IMG/VR virus record: IMGVR_UViG_3300001765_000030
Span: 117,191-181,190 of that record
DNA: 64,000 nucleotides
DNA from: a virus
Direction: 5' to 3' (one strand)
The position numbers were made by a program, and so were the translations under genes. Position 1 is the stretch's first letter; every line of letters begins with the position of its first letter. A model generated the notes under the pieces. The model did no database searches and was not told the DNA's origin. It saw only the letters and a program-made list of their open reading frames with translations. Below are positions 3,906-63,505 of the stretch, piece after piece.

Positions 3906-6263
3906 TTAGTCAGCACTATTATCTATAAACATCTGTTTCTTCTGGTCAGAATTCGTAAACAAATACCGAATCCAATCAGAAGTATGAACAGGGTCTGTAG
4001 CTACTAGTTTTATAAGGCATCTTGTTTTTGGATCCATTGATGTAATCTTAAGCTCCTCAGGAGTATTGGCTCCAAGTCCTTTACTACGTTTTACATCAGA
4101 ACCAGCTGAACTACTGAAGAAACTATTATTCACAAGCTTACCTTGATTATAATAAAACTCACTATATCTCAACTTAGTTCCACGACCAACAAGTCGAATT
4201 CTGCAAAGTTTGATAGTTTCAGTAATGTATTTAACGATTGGAGCTATGATATTAGTCATAAACTCTCTATCGATCTGAATATAATACTGTTCATATCCTC
4301 TACCGATATTCATTTTTCTATTACCATTTTTGAGAACTTCAAATGTTGAGCATACAAAACCATATGTTTCGAGACATTTGGTTTTACCTGCCATAATTTG
4401 TTTGAAATTCATCGCGATGGCTTCAAGAAGCAATGGATCGATAGATAATCTTTCTGCCATAGGTTCGAGAATCTGTTCAGAGTAGTACGGGAGATTTTTA
4501 ATATATTCTCTCGCAACGCCTTTTGGAAGAATTCTTCCATCTTTATCGATGATATCGAAAACTCTAATAGCTTTCTCACTCATGATTTTATACAGTTCTC
4601 TTTGAGATGATATAAATACATCACCTTGTTTTGTAGAAAGAGTATACAGTGGCGGTTTCGCAATAAATACGTTACCATTTGCAATCAATTCCGGATAGTG
4701 AGTGTGGAAGAATGCCACAAGTAAAGATGAAATATGATACCCGTCAACGTCCGCATCTGTAAGAATAATAATTCTTTTATACCGAAGTTTACGAATATCT
4801 TTATCTTTACCATATCCTATTCCGAGAATTTCAACAAGAGTAAATAACTCATCCGAAAACTCTTCACTTTTAATAACATTTTTAACTTTACCACGAAGTG
4901 CATACACTGCTTGGAAGTCACGATCACGGGCAGATCTCACTGTACCTGCTGCTGAATCTCCTTCGCAAAGGAATATTTCCCCACGTTCAGGATCAGTTTT
5001 GTTACAGTCTGAGAACTTCTTAACATCGATTTTACGGAAAAGATCTGTACGGCTTGAAGATCCTGCTTTAAGAATGTTATTCTTAATCTTAGACGCTTCA
5101 TATTTTGCAATCGCTAGTTTTGCACAATATTGTCCGATTTTATCAATTGATTCTTTATCAGATTCAATCCAACGCTTGATCTCTTCCTTAATGATAGGAA
5201 CTACCGTAGGTCGATATTCAAGAGAAGTAAACTCGGTTTTCTGTTGAGATCTATATTCAGCGTGTTGTTGTTCAGCAATCACGATAAAGAATAAACAATC
5301 TGAAATCTCATTTCCAGTAATTTTCACTTTACCGAGAAGAGATTTAGGAATGTAATTACATTTATTGAGATGGGATGTTAGAATTCCCATTGCTTCTGAC
5401 AAAGATTTGACGTGTTCTCCACCATCTTTTGTAAAGATACCATTCACATATGAAATGTTTCCGGCACCTTTTTGAGTAAACCCAAACATGATGTTATACC
5501 CTACAGTACGACGATCATTAATATATGAAATATTACAAGGTTTTCCGATAGGTTTGAGATCACGACGTTTGTGTTCTTTATTGTAATAATCTACAACTCC
5601 ATTTGGATGATAAAAGGTTTCAGCCTTTTCATCATTCCATTTGAAAGTAAGTTTTACTCCAGGAGTTACCATTGATGTAACTTCAATAAAGTTTCGATAT
5701 TCTGAACGTTTACTCGAGATATCGATTTCTCTCATAACTTCAATATCAGGGATCCAACTCACTATAGTTCCAGATGGCCCATTATATTTCTCAATGTGAA
5801 CAGGTTCTATTTGGACACCGGCATCAAATTTTGCAGTATGAGATTCGCCATCTCTTTTGGAAGTTGCTACAAAGTTTCTAGATACCGCTGTCACAAGAGT
5901 TATTCCTACACCATTAACGCCACCAGATATTTGATAACCTGAATTTTCTTGACCGGCAATATCTCCCATTTTACCAGAAGTATTCATTTTCGTAAGAATT
6001 CTTACAAGTTTACCTTGAGGAATTCCGCGCCCTCTGTCTCTAACAGTGAATACTGGACCAAGTGGGTTGATATTTGTATTTATTTCGATGTCGATCGTAT
6101 CGCCAAAGCCAACAATAAATTCGTCAATAGAGTTTGCAAAAACCTCTTGTAATAGGTGAAATACACCGTCAAGACCAATCTTACCATTCAGCATTGGACG
6201 TTTTCTTAGAGCTTCTAATTCTGAAAGCTCTACGATATGGTCGTCAGTATAATTTGAACTCAT
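3906..6263 (-). CDS. gyrB: DNA gyrase / type IIA topoisomerase subunit B
   Basis: GHKL motifs EVFANSIDE and DRGRGIP; TOPRIM motifs EGDSA, ALRGK, DADVDG. Start at 6263 follows AAGGAG. Confidence 0.95.
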   Translation of the reverse strand: MSSNYTDDHIVELSELEALRKRPMLNGKIGLDGVFHLLQEVFANSIDEFIVGFGDTIDIEINTNINPLGPVFTVRDRGRGIPQGKLVRILTKMNTSGKMGDIAGQENSGYQISGGVNGVGITLVTAVSRNFVATSKRDGESHTAKFDAGVQIEPVHIEKYNGPSGTIVSWIPDIEVMREIDISSKRSEYRNFIEVTSMVTPGVKLTFKWNDEKAETFYHPNGVVDYYNKEHKRRDLKPIGKPCNISYINDRRTVGYNIMFGFTQKGAGNISYVNGIFTKDGGEHVKSLSEAMGILTSHLNKCNYIPKSLLGKVKITGNEISDCLFFIVIAEQQHAEYRSQQKTEFTSLEYRPTVVPIIKEEIKRWIESDKESIDKIGQYCAKLAIAKYEASKIKNNILKAGSSSRTDLFRKIDVKKFSDCNKTDPERGEIFLCEGDSAAGTVRSARDRDFQAVYALRGKVKNVIKSEEFSDELFTLVEILGIGYGKDKDIRKLRYKRIIILTDADVDGYHISSLLVAFFHTHYPELIANGNVFIAKPPLYTLSTKQGDVFISSQRELYKIMSEKAIRVFDIIDKDGRILPKGVAREYIKNLPYYSEQILEPMAERLSIDPLLLEAIAMNFKQIMAGKTKCLETYGFVCSTFEVLKNGNRKMNIGRGYEQYYIQIDREFMTNIIAPIVKYITETIKLCRIRLVGRGTKLRYSEFYYNQGKLVNNSFFSSSAGSDVKRSKGLGANTPEELKITSMDPKTRCLIKLVATDPVHTSDWIRYLFTNSDQKKQMFIDNSAD

Positions 6264-6400
6264 TCTACTAAACTCCTTAAGTTTGTTACGTTTCAATGTT
6301 TAAGCCATTTTACATTTATATCCATTATCTTATATATAATCCAACCGCCATTTCAAGAAATAAAAAAAAAGATGAGAGAATTAACTCCCATCTTTTATAA

Positions 6401-8351: not shown

Positions 8352-8410
8352 ACACGCCTCCACGTTATTTGTTTATTTGTAGAACCATAGAAAAACTTAC
8401 TATATCTCTA

Positions 8411-8431
8411 CTCATAATTAAATATATACTC
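8411..8431 (-). promoter_or_regulatory. Early-type promoter
   Basis: GAGTATATATTTAATTATGAG. Confidence 0.7.
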
Positions 8432-9740: not shown

Positions 9741-9792
9741 TTCAAAACGAAGTTCAAAAATGTAAAAAGATGAGGACGAATCCTCACCATAT

Positions 9793-10335
9793 TTATTGGA
9801 ATTTTGTATTCAAATATGATATAATGAAATCATATTCTTCTTTATCCATCTTCAATCCCCACTTATATTTGACAGTTACCCAATCAATTATATAGGAATC
9901 TTTGTTTATTTTAGGCATCCATTTAGATGGATCTTTGGCACCCTTAGACCTATTCGAAGCGATTGACACAGCATGTAAATGTTTTGTATCGCTAATATTA
10001 TTGAAGAAATTAATCTTTTTATTCTTATCCCAAAGATACCCGCCAGACATATTCGCTTCAGATACTGGAACAAAATGGTCAATGTCTATAAGACTTGCAC
10101 CTCTAATAGTATCTCCACTGTAGATATCTATCCACATTCCTTTAACAATCTTTCCATTGACATATGTAGTACTTTCCGAAGATGCAATATTATCTCGAAT
10201 CAAAACTTCTTGTCTTGTATTCTGACCATCTTTATCGGAATCTATCCAAGTTCCCCATGAAGATCTATCATACGTTGGCATCGTTTGACACAGTATACTT
10301 GAGAGTAATACTAAGATTGATAAAATAACTTTCAT
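9793..10335 (-). CDS. Secreted HNH-type nuclease (DUF1524-like)
   Basis: Signal peptide MKVILSILVLLSSILC; 'IDIDHFVPVSEA...HLHAVSIASNRSKGAKDPSKWMP'. Start 10335 after AAGGAG; the track's 10449 start crosses a terminator. Confidence 0.85.
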   Translation of the reverse strand: MKVILSILVLLSSILCQTMPTYDRSSWGTWIDSDKDGQNTRQEVLIRDNIASSESTTYVNGKIVKGMWIDIYSGDTIRGASLIDIDHFVPVSEANMSGGYLWDKNKKINFFNNISDTKHLHAVSIASNRSKGAKDPSKWMPKINKDSYIIDWVTVKYKWGLKMDKEEYDFIISYLNTKFQ

Positions 10336-10360
10336 AAATATCTCCTTGTTAAAAAAATAA

Positions 10361-10697
10361 GGAGGGTGAATAACCGCCCTCCTATCTCTCGCACCGTTCG
10401 ACCGTACGATGTTGCGAAAACCATCTTGGTACGGTAAGTGATGGTCCACTAAAAATGTCCGTCACCATAGGACTCATCTATGGATTTGGGTTGAGTAATT
10501 ATTATTTACGAATACTCAGACTAGACTCAACACATCTGATCGCACCCTGTCTAGGCGGGTTATAATGACCAACTTTATCCATTCACACGACTGGAATCGT
10601 AGAAGCTAGTTGGAACTCTACAGCAACATCAAATGTATCTAGACATACAATTGATTGATAAATGATTATTAATCAGCGAAAAAACTAATCATTTATC
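10361..10697 (-). ncRNA. Candidate ~340-nt structured non-coding RNA, family unknown
   Basis: No ORF; about 10 helices; AACA-N6-TG promoter motif ending at 10697 and a hairpin plus U-tract at 10361-10382. Confidence 0.6.
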
Positions 10698-10709
10698 AAT
10701 ACATTGTTT
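10697..10709 (-). promoter_or_regulatory. Late-type promoter
   Basis: AAACAATGTATTG at the 5' end of the ncRNA candidate. Confidence 0.55.
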
Positions 10710-10738
10710 AAGCAGATATACATATAAATATACATCTA

Positions 10739-10758
10739 CTCATAATTAAATATATAAC
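10739..10758 (-). promoter_or_regulatory. Early-type promoter
   Basis: GTTATATATTTAATTATGAG. Confidence 0.7.
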
Positions 10759-10801
10759 CATAAATTCGATTTAAATAATAAAAAAAATAGCCCGAAGGCT
10801 C

Positions 10802-10867
10802 TTATTTTAAATTAATGGCAAGAGATTTAATCTCTCTCATCATCGCTTCAAATAATTCTTTAATCAT
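10802..10867 (-). CDS. Candidate 21-aa small protein MIKELFEAMMREIKSLAINLK
   Basis: AAAGGTGGA SD-like sequence, upstream promoter-like box, downstream hairpin. Confidence 0.4.
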   Translation of the reverse strand: MIKELFEAMMREIKSLAINLK

Positions 10868-10933
10868 TTGATCCACCTTTATTAAGTTTATTATCATCAC
10901 TTAATATAGACATCAATAAAATGATATTACAGA

Positions 10934-10948
10934 AAACATAGTAATGTA
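10934..10948 (+). promoter_or_regulatory. Late-type promoter
   Basis: AAACATAGTAATGTA. Confidence 0.7.
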
Positions 10949-10981
10949 TAAATAAATCAACTCTCCAACAGTGAGGTTACA

Positions 10982-11449
10982 ATGACTCCTGCAGCGTATA
11001 TTAATACTATCTCAACTAAGAAGTTTAATACTCCAGCGTATAGTGGCGCTGGTTACGTATTTTCAAAAATTCCTGAAAATACTCCATTTGCTCGTCACCC
11101 AGCAGATGTTTCACGATACTGTGAGCATATTGAATCTGGAAAAGATAAAGCGTCTTTCGTCGATAAATATGAACGGTTTGAATTCAGAATGACAGATGGT
11201 AGAACATTTGGTGCAATTCTTAAAGGTACACTTGACGTGTCGGATGCAAATATTGCTATATTTAAAACAGATGCTGACTTGTACGATACTATCGCTGTTG
11301 CAGGTGCTCCTCAGCAGAATAAATATGAGTATATCGATAAAACTACCGGAAAAAGAATGCGTAGATATTATGAACGCACTGTAGTTGTTGATTATATCAA
11401 AATTGACGTTATCGAATTTGTAACAGTTGTTACAGAAGAAATTGTCTAA
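10982..11449 (+). CDS. Hypothetical protein, probably late/virion
   Basis: ORF track; GAGG SD; late-type promoter 10934-10948. Confidence 0.75.
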   Translation: MTPAAYINTISTKKFNTPAYSGAGYVFSKIPENTPFARHPADVSRYCEHIESGKDKASFVDKYERFEFRMTDGRTFGAILKGTLDVSDANIAIFKTDADLYDTIAVAGAPQQNKYEYIDKTTGKRMRRYYERTVVVDYIKIDVIEFVTVVTEEIV

Positions 11450-11456
11450 ATAAATA

Positions 11457-11483
11457 GTATAGTGGGGAATATCCCCACTATAC
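11457..11483. terminator. Bidirectional hairpin between convergent genes
   Basis: GTATAGTGGGGA/TCCCCACTATAC. Confidence 0.8.
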
Positions 11484-11489
11484 ATATTT

Positions 11490-22762: not shown

Positions 22763-24817
22763 TTATGGTACGCTGTCGTATTCAGTGGAAGCCACGTTCT
22801 TCTGAAACCCAGCAACGGTACCTCGTAAACCAAGTGCAGAAAGTATATTAGTTCCGAAGTTATGCTGACCATCAGGATTACCACCATTTGCAGAACTTAG
22901 AAAACGTCCGCCCGCTTTAAATGTATCTTCGAGATTTTTAAACCATCTGCCGGCACGTTTTAAAATATTGCGTTGATCCGTAAGGCTTAACCCTCCAAGT
23001 AAGCTAAGATATTGACTATATGAATCATTTCCCATAAATAATGAGAAAAATAACCCACGGTTCATCGACATCATCATTACAGGAGAAATATCTTTAATAG
23101 AAACGTTACATTTTATAGTTCTAGGTTTATTATCAATGGTCCAGTTATTTTTATCTTCACCTCTTTCAATTGAAAGAGATTCAATAATTCCCATAGGAAC
23201 GTTGAACAAACCATTCGATGAAACTCTTACAACAAATGGATTTGTATAAGTTTTAGAACCAATCTGTCTAGGCATTGTCATTGCGAATAATAATAAAAAT
23301 GGGATGTATGTATTTTCAAATATTGAAAGATTATCCCCATAAGGAGATGTGAATTTGAAAGACATACTTACACTTCTACTGAAAGAAGAATCTGTCCATA
23401 CTTCCGGAAGAGAAATACGACCTTCACCCGAAAGAACTGTTCCAGAATCTCCTCGCAATAACGTTTTACCAACACGATCTACACGTGCTTTTACAGAATC
23501 CAAAAATGATTGAGCAGCATTTGCCCCGGCATCATTACTATAATTATTTATAGCTTCATTCTGAGCAGTTGCAGCTTCACCATTAAGGGATGATTGTAAA
23601 GGGTTCTGAGATGTACTATTATTGATACTTTCAGATATAGAAACATCTTTATTTATCATATAAGGTATAAATTCAGAACCATACGCGGAATCATCATAAA
23701 GGATACTTGCAAGTCTTAAACTTATCAAACGTCCAACATAACCATCCAATGCATTTTCAACCTTATTATCAACTTTAGTTGTCCAATCATTACCAAAGCT
23801 TTCATTATCCCTAAATTTCTCTCCAATTTGATTTAGAAGAGTTTCATCCATAGCGGTACCTTCATCGCCATAGTATTTAACTTCTCCTCCAGCATCATCA
23901 ACAGATCCATTTAAAAGGCCCATCATAGTTGCAACTTGTCGGAGTATATCATTTACATATTTATGGAAAAGATTGTATTGTGGAACAAAGATTGCATATT
24001 TTCTCAATCCAAGAACCCATTTTAATCCTTCAGTACCAAGTCGTAACGGAAATGTTGCAACATTCCAAGACGTAACTAATACTGTCTTTACTGCAATAAA
24101 TCCTTTCTCAACAAGATTTCCTCCACCATCACGGATGTAATTTAATATAGTCTTATCATCCCCACCTTCAAATGCAGTATTGGTAAATAAATTTGTATTG
24201 TATTTTATTTTTCCAACTTCAAAATATGCAATTGGATAATTCGATACGATTTTCTCATTATAAACTCTTCCCAAATGTGGAAAATATAAGTCACTTCTTA
24301 CATCATCGTGAGGATTGAACTGAAATGGAGGATTGATAACTTTACTTCTACCAATACCTGTGCCCATTTTATTTGTCTTATATTTTTTACCATCCTCTGT
24401 GATAGATGAATCAAAGAAGTTAAAATTTGAATCTCTATTAACCGAACCTTCTTCTCCATCGCCACCTTGAGATGCTGGACCTGTACCATCGTCTGCATCA
24501 GTATCAAGTATTGCTGAAATAGAATCTTTAGCGGCCAATTTAGATGAAGATACGATAGGAGTATAGAAATTTGATCCAGCATCGATCATTTTAAGACCAA
24601 TACCAGTACCATTACTAGATGTGGTGAGAGAGCTCTTTAAACTCTGACTCATTCTAGTAGATATACTTTTTCCAATATCATTGATAGTATCAATCTTTGA
24701 AAGGCCTGTAATATTATAATCACGCTTTATAGCAACTTTTGAAGTATCTGAAACGAACTGTGATAGATCGAGTTTCTCTTCTCTACTTTGACCAGGCACA
24801 TTTAATGGATCTGCCAT
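22763..24817 (-). CDS. Tail tube initiator / baseplate hub-type protein
   Basis: 'LPEVWTDSSFSRSVSMSFKFTSPYG...GIIESLSIERG...PRTIKCNVSIKDI' is typical of tube-fold baseplate proteins; follows the tape measure gene. Confidence 0.65.
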   Translation of the reverse strand: MADPLNVPGQSREEKLDLSQFVSDTSKVAIKRDYNITGLSKIDTINDIGKSISTRMSQSLKSSLTTSSNGTGIGLKMIDAGSNFYTPIVSSSKLAAKDSISAILDTDADDGTGPASQGGDGEEGSVNRDSNFNFFDSSITEDGKKYKTNKMGTGIGRSKVINPPFQFNPHDDVRSDLYFPHLGRVYNEKIVSNYPIAYFEVGKIKYNTNLFTNTAFEGGDDKTILNYIRDGGGNLVEKGFIAVKTVLVTSWNVATFPLRLGTEGLKWVLGLRKYAIFVPQYNLFHKYVNDILRQVATMMGLLNGSVDDAGGEVKYYGDEGTAMDETLLNQIGEKFRDNESFGNDWTTKVDNKVENALDGYVGRLISLRLASILYDDSAYGSEFIPYMINKDVSISESINNSTSQNPLQSSLNGEAATAQNEAINNYSNDAGANAAQSFLDSVKARVDRVGKTLLRGDSGTVLSGEGRISLPEVWTDSSFSRSVSMSFKFTSPYGDNLSIFENTYIPFLLLFAMTMPRQIGSKTYTNPFVVRVSSNGLFNVPMGIIESLSIERGEDKNNWTIDNKPRTIKCNVSIKDISPVMMMSMNRGLFFSLFMGNDSYSQYLSLLGGLSLTDQRNILKRAGRWFKNLEDTFKAGGRFLSSANGGNPDGQHNFGTNILSALGLRGTVAGFQKNVASTEYDSVP

Positions 24818-47588: not shown

Positions 47589-47608
47589 GAATATATATTT
47601 AATTATGG
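47589..47608 (+). promoter_or_regulatory. Early-type promoter
   Basis: GAATATATATTTAATTATGG. Confidence 0.7.
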
Positions 47609-47666
47609 TAATAGAGATATTATACGAGTGTATGATATCTAAAAAAATAAATTAAAGGAGCTATGT

Positions 47667-61447: not shown

Positions 61448-63505
61448 TTATTTCTTAATACCGATCTCGACAGTTTCTGATACTTGGTCGGAATATACTG
61501 AGTATCCGAGTTGAGTCATGATTGCAACAAATGCATCAGATGCAATACTATCCATGATATCTTCACTTTTAATATTTACATCATGATATTCAAGAGGATC
61601 TTCTTCAAGGAGCATCTTAGAAACCTTATCTCTATGAGCAAGGTTAGATCCTCCAGCAGCAAGAAGTCTGTTCACAATCAGTGGATCTGTTCGGTTAATT
61701 GCAATATTAACTTCCATTTCACCAAGTTTAATAGGGGTAGCTCTATATGGCAATCTCTTACTGTTAGAGGTGTTTTTGTGAGGAAGACCTAAAGTATTCA
61801 CATCACTAACACTTACAGAAGAGAATTTACTTTCGGTAGTGTGCTTAAGAACCATAATGTATTCTTTACCTACAATAACCGGACATATAGATTTATAGTA
61901 TTGGATTTTCTCACCCTCAGGAGTCATAACTTTGACACCAGTGGTAATCTTTGAAGGTTTAACTCCAAATTCCATATAAAGCTTTTTCATGTTTTCAAAT
62001 GTAATATTCGTGAAAGGATGTTGTCTAACATAGATTCCATTCTTCACTACATTCGCAAAGTATTCATGCTTTTGCTTAGTTGTAAGGGATTTGTAATATT
62101 TTTCAAAGTATTGAGAACTTTCAGCATCAGCAATCTTATAGAACGTGTGAAGCTTCTTGTATTTAGAAGCAAGATCTTCACATTTATCGATCTGAATTGC
62201 GACGTGATCTCCAATGAAGTTCAATTCGTGTTCATAGTGTTGACCACTGTTAGATCGACCAATTGTACCAGTTGGGTTAAGTATTACATCAATATGATTT
62301 CCATACTCATCAAATGGCATCAATTCCTTAGGCAGAACTGCACACACAACACCTTTACCACCGAATCTATTGGTTAGTTTAGAACCAAGAGATAGTGGAA
62401 CAGTTCGACCAATTGTAAACTTAAGGTACGCGAATTCGAATGAACCACTACCGTTACTGAATTTAATACCGTCTGTACTAAGCATGTTACACGCATCTAC
62501 GTAATTTTTATATGTAGCATAGCGAGTATTCGCTTCAACAGTGATATTAGCACTCTTATCCTTGATATGGACTTCAAGAGCTTTATACACATTGGTCTTA
62601 TAATCTTTGACGATGTTGTAATAGTTGATGATTTGTTGACGATGCAGGTTATCTTTATACAATTCAGCATTAGAATTGATAAAGATTTCTACATCGAGAA
62701 CTTTACCATCACCATGGTACAACTCATCATTTGTATCGATCTTGGAAAGAGCTGCAGCAGTTGTATTGCAACCAGTATTAAAATGGTCAATACTACGTTT
62801 TGCGCAGAATATTCCATCTTTAACATCACTAAATACGTCAGGGAATGATTTATAAATAAGATCATCTCCGTAAATATTTAGAAGGATATCGTTAAATCCA
62901 AGAGTAATTTCTACAGTTTTAATTGTAGCATATGTCACACGTTGTGCAAATTCTTCAGAAATGATGATACCATCTTCGATATTATCTTTCTTCGAAATGT
63001 ATGCAACGTTCGCATTTACCCCATACTTGTAGTTCAAGTTCTCATCATGAGAACTCGCTCTTGATATAACTTCCCCTTGAGCAATAGTAGTGCCAATATG
63101 CTTATTGTCTACAGCACACCCAGGTTTAAAATATCCATGCTCTTCAGCCAAGGATTCATAATGTTTATTTTCAATGATACCGATAACACCTGTCATAAGA
63201 TCTCTTACAACTAATGTATAGTGGTATCCTGGACGGGATGGGAATTTTTCAATTCTATTAAGGATTACGTAGTTTGTTTTAGCAACACGCAACGAATCAT
63301 TGTAAGAACCGAATTGTTTCTCAAACCCTGTAAACATTCGTGGAACTTCTGAATTATTCAGAATGAGCGATTGCTCATAGTAGCTTCCAGTAAGATGTAA
63401 TCTTGGACCAGAAGCCTTATTAGGAGTTGTAAGATTATACACTCCTAGAACATCGACTGGATCGGTGTTCAAGTCCAGATTTAAAAATTCTTCTTGTAAA
63501 CCCAC
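61448..63505 (-). CDS. rpoB: Phage RNA polymerase beta C-terminal subunit (probably non-virion RNAP)
   Basis: NIEDGIIISE, GSKLTNRFGGKGVV, MPFDEYGNHIDVILNP, YIMVLKH, KLGEMEV; GTG start with GGAGG. Confidence 0.92.
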   Translation of the reverse strand: MGLQEEFLNLDLNTDPVDVLGVYNLTTPNKASGPRLHLTGSYYEQSLILNNSEVPRMFTGFEKQFGSYNDSLRVAKTNYVILNRIEKFPSRPGYHYTLVVRDLMTGVIGIIENKHYESLAEEHGYFKPGCAVDNKHIGTTIAQGEVISRASSHDENLNYKYGVNANVAYISKKDNIEDGIIISEEFAQRVTYATIKTVEITLGFNDILLNIYGDDLIYKSFPDVFSDVKDGIFCAKRSIDHFNTGCNTTAAALSKIDTNDELYHGDGKVLDVEIFINSNAELYKDNLHRQQIINYYNIVKDYKTNVYKALEVHIKDKSANITVEANTRYATYKNYVDACNMLSTDGIKFSNGSGSFEFAYLKFTIGRTVPLSLGSKLTNRFGGKGVVCAVLPKELMPFDEYGNHIDVILNPTGTIGRSNSGQHYEHELNFIGDHVAIQIDKCEDLASKYKKLHTFYKIADAESSQYFEKYYKSLTTKQKHEYFANVVKNGIYVRQHPFTNITFENMKKLYMEFGVKPSKITTGVKVMTPEGEKIQYYKSICPVIVGKEYIMVLKHTTESKFSSVSVSDVNTLGLPHKNTSNSKRLPYRATPIKLGEMEVNIAINRTDPLIVNRLLAAGGSNLAHRDKVSKMLLEEDPLEYHDVNIKSEDIMDSIASDAFVAIMTQLGYSVYSDQVSETVEIGIKK

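Follow-up and report, generated by a model that had tools for sequence, protein, structure and literature searches.

A candidate stand-alone non-coding transcription unit with predicted early and late promoters in an AR9-like jumbo phage

The signals around an ORF-free, GC-enriched block in the genome of an AR9-like jumbo phage make its transcription into a non-coding RNA very probable. The block lies within a window of 64,000 nucleotides, the whole stretch of DNA analysed here, which is the final 64 kb of a 181-kb IMG/VR record of 35% GC and an estimated completeness of 69%. Its signals support a discrete minus-strand unit between two promoters of kinds typical of this genome and an intrinsic terminator. 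The reading preferred here, to which we give a probability of roughly 0.45, is that of a stand-alone, continuously expressed orphan ncRNA gene in which read-through of the terminator (T1) feeds a nuclease gene. Several features tell against that reading and are weighed below, among them the failure to find any homologue, a core that folds like shuffled sequence, the absence of a counterpart in the closest relative (G001), and the reliance of the nuclease on the promoters of the block, which could make the block the long 5' UTR of that gene.

Sequence comparison identifies the source as an AR9-like jumbo phage. Its type II topoisomerase subunit has its best matches, at ~28% identity, in AR9, PBS1, Staphylococcus phage S6 and Yersinia phage phiR1-37, all of them jumbo phages that encode their own multisubunit RNA polymerases. 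No close relative was found among GenBank phages by blastn, by megablast or by tblastn with the 991-aa protein encoded next to the block, and protein-word searches for relatives found none. The nearest metagenomic relatives are only 52-64% identical in the topoisomerase subunit.

Signals and composition of the unit

Across window positions 1-22,000 the genes all stand on the minus strand, except for a few small antisense cassettes, and the block takes its place among them as set out in Table 1. Its downstream edge depends on where the nuclease gene begins. The frame as listed opens at GTG 10449, but the real start is ATG 10335, since a good ribosome-binding site precedes that codon, and the ORF-free gap consequently extends from 10336 to 10981, the longest in the 181-kb record. 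The block had been described in the initial annotation as ORF-free, and no ORF of more than 36 aa is present within it. Stop codons occur in all six frames at the density expected of random sequence, and tblastx, against relatives and against the phage's own genome, detected no decayed coding gene. On the far side, the terminator that follows the 21-codon micro-ORF is predicted to insulate the RNA unit from it. Beyond the gap, a listed 124-aa ORF (11111-11485, minus strand) is probably spurious, because the conserved 155-aa gene of the plus strand and the bidirectional terminator both overlap it. The reported elevation in GC is equally clear: the core (10383-10654) has a GC content of 41.9%, which places it among the top 5% of genome windows, against 16-27% in the flanking spacers, and the stretch 10700-10780 falls to ~17%.

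Table 1. Features of the block and its surroundings (window positions unless a locus is named; promoters, terminators and hairpins are predictions)
Feature	Position	Strand	Remarks
991-aa gene	ends at bidirectional terminator 11457-11483	-	
155-aa gene	10982-11449	+	opposite to its neighbours; own promoter
Micro-ORF, 21 codons	10802-10867	-	ribosome-binding site; own terminator
Upstream terminator	10780-10801	-	UUCG hairpin + U8
Early-type promoter motif (AR9 virion-RNAP-like)	10736-10756	-	predicted start G/A/G 10741-10739
Hairpin A, 12 bp	10712-10739	-	predicted 5' end of early transcript
Late-type promoter motif, AACA-N6-TG	10697-10708	-	predicted start G10697
Hairpin B, perfect 14-bp inverted repeat with 17-nt loop	10655-10699	-	unique in genome
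GC-rich core body	10408-10630	-	~42% GC; closable by 8-bp helix 10630-10623 / 10415-10408
Intrinsic terminator T1	10351-10383	-	7+2-bp GC-rich hairpin 10360-10383 + U-tract 10351-10359
Signal-peptide HNH / GmrSD_C-type nuclease gene	9793-10335	-	promoterless
Terminator T2	9769-9788	-	closes RNA + nuclease unit
Next early promoter after T2	9739	-	
226-nt RNA of L030	L030:4713-4938	+	at orthologous slot, behind homologous promoter

The two promoters, which are predicted from motifs alone, were recognised with motifs derived from the phage genome itself and only then compared with the AR9 consensus sequences. The early-type motif consists of an extended AT-rich TATATATT, seven unspecified nucleotides and a conserved G, and has ~25 genomic copies before genes; the copy in the block is identical over ~23 nt to the copy at 8428, and its flank is homologous to the promoter of a 226-nt RNA in a related locus, L030. 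The late-type motif in its strict form, AACA-N3-TAWTG, has 29 genomic copies, 22 of them intergenic and 21 situated 2-43 nt before an ORF, and the copy in the block is the sole intergenic one without an ORF within 100 nt. In AR9 both promoter classes have been mapped experimentally, the early consensus being AAATATATATTAT-(6N)-G+1 and the late consensus AACA-(6N)-T-A/G, with the last base as the start (Lavysh et al. 2017, PMC5312081). Given that both motifs of the block fit these consensus sequences, and are enriched before genes of their own genome, the labels early and late in the initial annotation were well founded. AR9 genes with both an early and a late promoter are continuously expressed (PMC5312081), and an early and a late promoter in tandem would, in AR9 terms, make the block a continuously expressed unit.

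Each of the two predicted transcripts would begin with a hairpin. Hairpin A, at the early start, has a folding energy of -11.8 kcal/mol (z -4.5). Stem-loops of 11-12 bp, read by eye, also lie directly after the early promoters at 8428 (8384-8428) and 47592 (47592-47650), so that hairpin A may be a part of the promoter cassette and not a feature peculiar to this RNA. Hairpin B (-12.5 kcal/mol, z -4.85) is bound up with the late start, as had been pointed out: G10697 lies within the inverted repeat, 12 bp of which form the 5' end of the predicted late transcript. T1 (-13.8 kcal/mol, z -3.9) has a U-tract on the minus strand alone, where it makes a strong terminator, and it ends ~20 nt before the start codon of the nuclease. 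From these signals predicted RNAs of ~390 nt (early start) and ~346 nt (late start) follow. The promoters, the terminator and the lower folding energy favour the minus strand. The argument for the plus strand had been drawn from G-U wobbles: two such pairs form on the plus strand only, and three form on the minus strand only, all of them in hairpin A, which had been overlooked.

Folding, family tests and homologue searches

The initial description of a highly structured RNA is not borne out for the core. Folding of the whole region exceeds that of shuffled sequence (z -3.8 on the minus strand, -4.4 on the plus strand), but the 14-bp inverted repeat and the terminator account for this excess; the core, without the 5' hairpins and terminator, gives z -1.44 (minus) and -0.42 (plus) and so behaves like shuffled sequence. 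Every helix that had been proposed is complementary as described, yet the helices are of the size that chance provides, and in the minus-strand ensemble several of the local ones pair with a probability no higher than 0.04. Likewise, the 8-bp long-range pairing interpreted as a pseudoknot is of a kind of which, by an arithmetic estimate, about one perfect example is expected by chance in 350 nt. As a closing helix of the core body the same pairing reaches a probability of 0.65-0.85, and the domain cut at this helix gives z -2.1, a value for a cut that was picked post hoc. In the 3' part, three helices are mutually exclusive (10390-10394/10404-10408, 10401-10407/10429-10435 and 10408-10415/10623-10630).

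Much stronger folding is seen in other ORF-free parts of this genome, where z runs from -4.5 to -6.8, terminator hairpins included. Within the window, the minus-strand segment 60555-60767 lies between two minus-strand genes and folds into four to five successive hairpins, with a terminator as the end of the series (z -6.2); Rfam gives no match for this segment, which could represent either a small RNA or a structured 3' UTR. Outside the window, three further GC-elevated, ORF-free segments of the same phage (G000:C1) are candidate structured RNAs or, equally as candidates, composite promoter/terminator cassettes: 62569-62904 (z -6.8 plus, -6.0 minus), 23384-23567 (-4.9, -4.5) and 78897-79093 (-4.2, -3.4).

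Searches for a known RNA family were uniformly negative. At the Rfam gathering score, and with E up to 10, only chance-level sRNA and miRNA models appeared, placed on the terminators and the palindrome, while the same tool detected a group I intron and a tmRNA in related loci. ARAGORN (default and relaxed) and Rfam RF00005 found no tRNA or tRNA-like cloverleaf and no T-arm; RF00023 and the permuted forms, with relaxed ARAGORN and E up to 10, gave no tmRNA; no T-loop or CCA-ended acceptor stem could be seen in the block by eye. No Rfam covariance model matched for group I or II introns, GOLLD, ROOL, OLE, HEARO, RNase P, SRP or 6S, and riboswitches, T-boxes and other cis-regulatory leader families produced no credible Rfam match. 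The statement that tRNA, tmRNA, RNase P, SRP and intron signatures are missing is thus upheld, and the Rfam search that had been proposed returned no known family. Three specific candidates were dropped along the way: a retron msr-msd RNA, as no RVT_1 domain occurs anywhere in the record; a permuted or two-piece tmRNA, as there was no Rfam match and the record, 69% complete, contains no SmpB gene, although the host might supply that protein; and a T-box, for lack of an Rfam match.

Homologues proved just as elusive. None was found among GenBank phages (blastn, megablast), elsewhere in the phage's own genome, or in four related phage loci (nhmmer, blastn), and none of the loci L031-L038, collected by a profile search with the 155-aa neighbour, has a similar RNA. 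In G001, the closest relative (200 kb, topoisomerase 64% identical), no counterpart was found by blastn, by nhmmer or by scanning for gaps with elevated GC, and a block of 47% GC at the end of a G001 contig was rejected, being coding sequence. When four segments of the core were run as exact-word queries through viral, metagenome and genome collections, they gave seed-length chance matches only, which fell in high-GC contigs and in a rhomboid-protease gene. What the proposed homologue search in phage metagenomes did recover is two contigs (L003 and L004, assemblies from two other samples) that are 100% identical over the RNA region and carry an identical nuclease; being identical, they yield no variation to analyse, and no divergent homologue accompanies them. 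Sequencing runs SRR931349 and SRR21758068 are the source of the DNA assemblies from samples that contain this phage. A class needs members, and as the phage, viral-contig, metagenome and genome collections and the four related loci contained no further one, the earlier proposal of a new phage ncRNA class is unsupported. A search for antisense targets in the phage genome gave nothing beyond chance, the one 16-nt match being a similar terminator.

The slot in related phages and the nuclease behind T1

The locus L030 shows what the same position can hold in a related phage. Its 1088-, 146- and 111-aa genes are orthologues of the local 991-, 155- and 110-aa genes (36%, 52% and 32% identity, respectively), and the two loci are also similar in DNA sequence from the antisense promoter, across the micro-ORF with its terminator, as far as the early promoter. 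A micro-ORF of 19-21 codons lies upstream of the slot in both phages (L030:4581-4640, plus strand, in the relative); its position is conserved, its peptide sequence is not. Where the similarity ends, L030 carries the 226-nt RNA. A terminal helix of 15 bp, whose third acceptor pair is a G:U, closes this RNA, and a discriminator A + CCA forms its 3' end (...GC-A-CCA); it also has a T-loop-like hairpin, GUGG-UUCGAUU-CCAC, and its own terminator, after which a fresh promoter serves the next gene. At 40.9% GC, against 24-26% in its flanks, it has the same compositional signature as the window core. Neither ARAGORN nor Rfam calls it; by its sequence features it could be a minimal phage RNA that resembles a tmRNA or an alanine minihelix. 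Elsewhere in L030, a group I intron (L030:9686-9962; Rfam 92 bits), with an HNH_3 gene just upstream, splits a topoisomerase/gyrase B-like gene whose counterpart in the window (3906-6296) is uninterrupted.

Other relatives carry other RNAs nearby. In the same gene neighbourhood, L028 has a full tmRNA (L028:4822-5222; Rfam 162 bits; tag ANNFAVKFATAFAENVQLGMATSIAA), followed at L028:5223-6038 by a further ~700-800 nt of ORF-free sequence without a family match. L034 has 2.5 kb of ORF-free minus-strand sequence (L034:892-3397) beside a homologue of the 155-aa protein, in which a tRNA-Asn (2549-2624) is the sole recognisable element. The gap is missing from more distant relatives. The non-coding inserts of the four related phages are mutually unrelated, which points to a hypervariable cargo site that has repeatedly held RNA genes. 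The block thus shares with the L030 RNA its slot, an upstream promoter cassette, the GC signature and possession of a terminator, and with the L028 tmRNA its gene neighbourhood, but it differs from both in having no T-loop, no acceptor/CCA end, no tag ORF and no significant sequence similarity to either. Aligned globally, the window core and the L030 RNA give a score that ranks in the top 0.5% of genome windows and is reached by one in 300 shuffles; MAFFT aligns the 5' half differently, the helix registers disagree, and the comparison is a weak hint only of remote homology.

Being promoterless and starting ~20 nt after T1, the nuclease gene must be expressed by read-through of that terminator. 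Its homologues at 45-54% identity have no such leader upstream, and no comparable non-coding block precedes those in L005, L006, L007 and G001. The G001 homologue (G001:C1:188379-188843, minus strand) is likewise promoterless and begins ~20 nt downstream of the terminator that closes an ordinary 86-aa gene, so the succession of terminator and nuclease is a property of the nuclease cassette, not of the RNA block; a tRNA-Met, an HNH-like gene and a tRNA-Arg come next in that genome. The nuclease is absent from the orthologous L030 locus, which implies either an insertion in the present phage or a loss in L030.

Competing readings and significance

In the preferred reading, that of a stand-alone ncRNA gene, the early-type promoter would start a minus-strand RNA at about 10741-10739 and the late-type promoter a second, shorter form at G10697. 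The terminal 5' hairpin on each form, together with the end at T1, would favour a stable, accumulating RNA whose body would be the GC-enriched domain of ~220-270 nt. A fraction of the polymerases would pass T1 and supply low-level mRNA for the exported nuclease. The RNA itself may act in trans, by binding a protein or the translation or RNA-processing machinery, a role we infer from the RNA with a tRNA-like end that occupies the slot in one sister phage and from the tRNA and the tmRNA in the same neighbourhood of two others. A bolder version would make it the founding member of an undescribed type of jumbo-phage ncRNA, expressed throughout infection from both phage RNA polymerases and filling the slot, and perhaps the niche (manipulation of translation or RNA processing), of the tmRNA- and tRNA-like RNAs of the sisters; this we regard as decidedly improbable.

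In light of the shuffle-like core and the failure to find homologues, the block might instead be a transcribed but functionless spacer, foreign or decayed sequence between the conserved promoter cassette and the inserted nuclease, for instance what is left of an earlier RNA gene, or DNA brought in along with the nuclease cassette. The hypervariability of the slot, with its mutually unrelated inserts, and the missing nuclease in L030 fit such an origin. It is nevertheless unlikely, if with a real share of the weight, given that a GC content of 42% has been kept in a genome whose spacers have 16-27%, that independent assemblies from two further samples show no difference in sequence, that a dedicated late promoter lies inside the unit and both transcript forms begin with a hairpin, and that tblastx shows no former coding sequence. 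The dependence of the nuclease on the block raises a different prospect, a cis-regulatory 5' leader of the nuclease mRNA in which T1 would be a conditional attenuator set by alternative pairings within 10390-10435. The mutually exclusive helices of the 3' part would suit such a switch, the 5' half of T1 does pair with 10428-10435 when the 3' half is withheld, and 5' UTRs of up to 491 nt are known from AR9 (PMC5312081). However, the terminator form is favoured over the alternative by ~15 kcal/mol, the block matches no family of riboswitches, T-boxes or leaders, the homologous nucleases are leaderless (in G001 with the same layout after an ordinary protein gene), and the orthologous L030 slot holds an RNA gene that has a terminator to itself, with a new promoter beyond it. 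An attenuated leader is accordingly a quite unlikely account of the block.

Descent from the L030 RNA, by strong divergence with loss of the T-loop and CCA end and gain of a 5' extension, draws on the shared slot behind a homologous promoter, on bodies of similar size (223 and 226 nt), each closed by a terminal helix, and on the global alignment. Against it, the local alignment is not significant and nhmmer and blastn are empty; the 5' half aligns differently in MAFFT, the 3' helix registers do not match, and no T-loop, CCA end or tRNA/tmRNA signal emerges even at relaxed thresholds. The p of ~0.005 is itself weak, since several comparisons were tried, and such descent appears highly improbable. 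A role of the DNA itself, as replication origin, packaging site or operator, had also been raised in the form of an ssDNA or origin function, for which no positive evidence was found. A perfect 14-bp palindrome does adjoin the ~17% GC stretch 10700-10780, and folding of the whole region is about equally good on the two strands. Yet there are no iterons or other repeats, no GC-skew inflection and no switch in gene orientation; the AT-rich stretch is fully explained by the promoter motifs and hairpin A, and the palindrome begins exactly at the predicted late transcription start. A DNA-level element is thus hard to credit.

Set beside known systems, the stand-alone ncRNA gene favoured here finds partial parallels only. 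The continuously expressed units of AR9 have, like the block, tandem early (virion-RNAP) and late (non-virion-RNAP) promoters (PMC5312081), and the likeness extends to the motifs themselves, an AT-rich TATATATT with a G at a fixed downstream distance and AACA-N6-T-G(+1); the block differs in having no ORF before its terminator and promoters known as motifs, and its phage is very distant. Another comparison is offered by GOLLD and ROOL, which are large stand-alone phage ncRNAs whose function is structural or unknown. The block resembles them as an ORF-free, GC-enriched, predicted independently transcribed unit in a jumbo phage, but is shorter, has no Rfam match, and is without the support of covariation or of a multi-copy family. 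Finally, the PeSL (promoter-early stem-loop) cassettes of T4-type phages consist of an early promoter followed by a stem-loop. They are echoed here by the stem-loops directly after several early promoters and by an adjoining hypervariable cargo slot, in another phage lineage and with another type of promoter.

The block is therefore best filed as an orphan "stand-alone jumbo-phage ncRNA cassette". Its appeal lies in the clean architecture of its signals (an early and a late promoter, a 5' hairpin for each transcript form, a terminator), in its position in the slot where related phages place translation-related RNAs, and in the promoterless exported nuclease parked directly behind the terminator, a layout that recurs in a relative. 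Should the RNA prove not to be functional, the case would show that a block rich in GC, free of ORFs and equipped with good promoters can be mere filler of a cargo slot. Should it be abundant and functional, it would offer a tractable piece of phage RNA biology that is independent of host transcription. More broadly, stand-alone non-coding transcription units are coming to light in jumbo phages that carry their own multisubunit RNA polymerases, and the case adds one predicted example.
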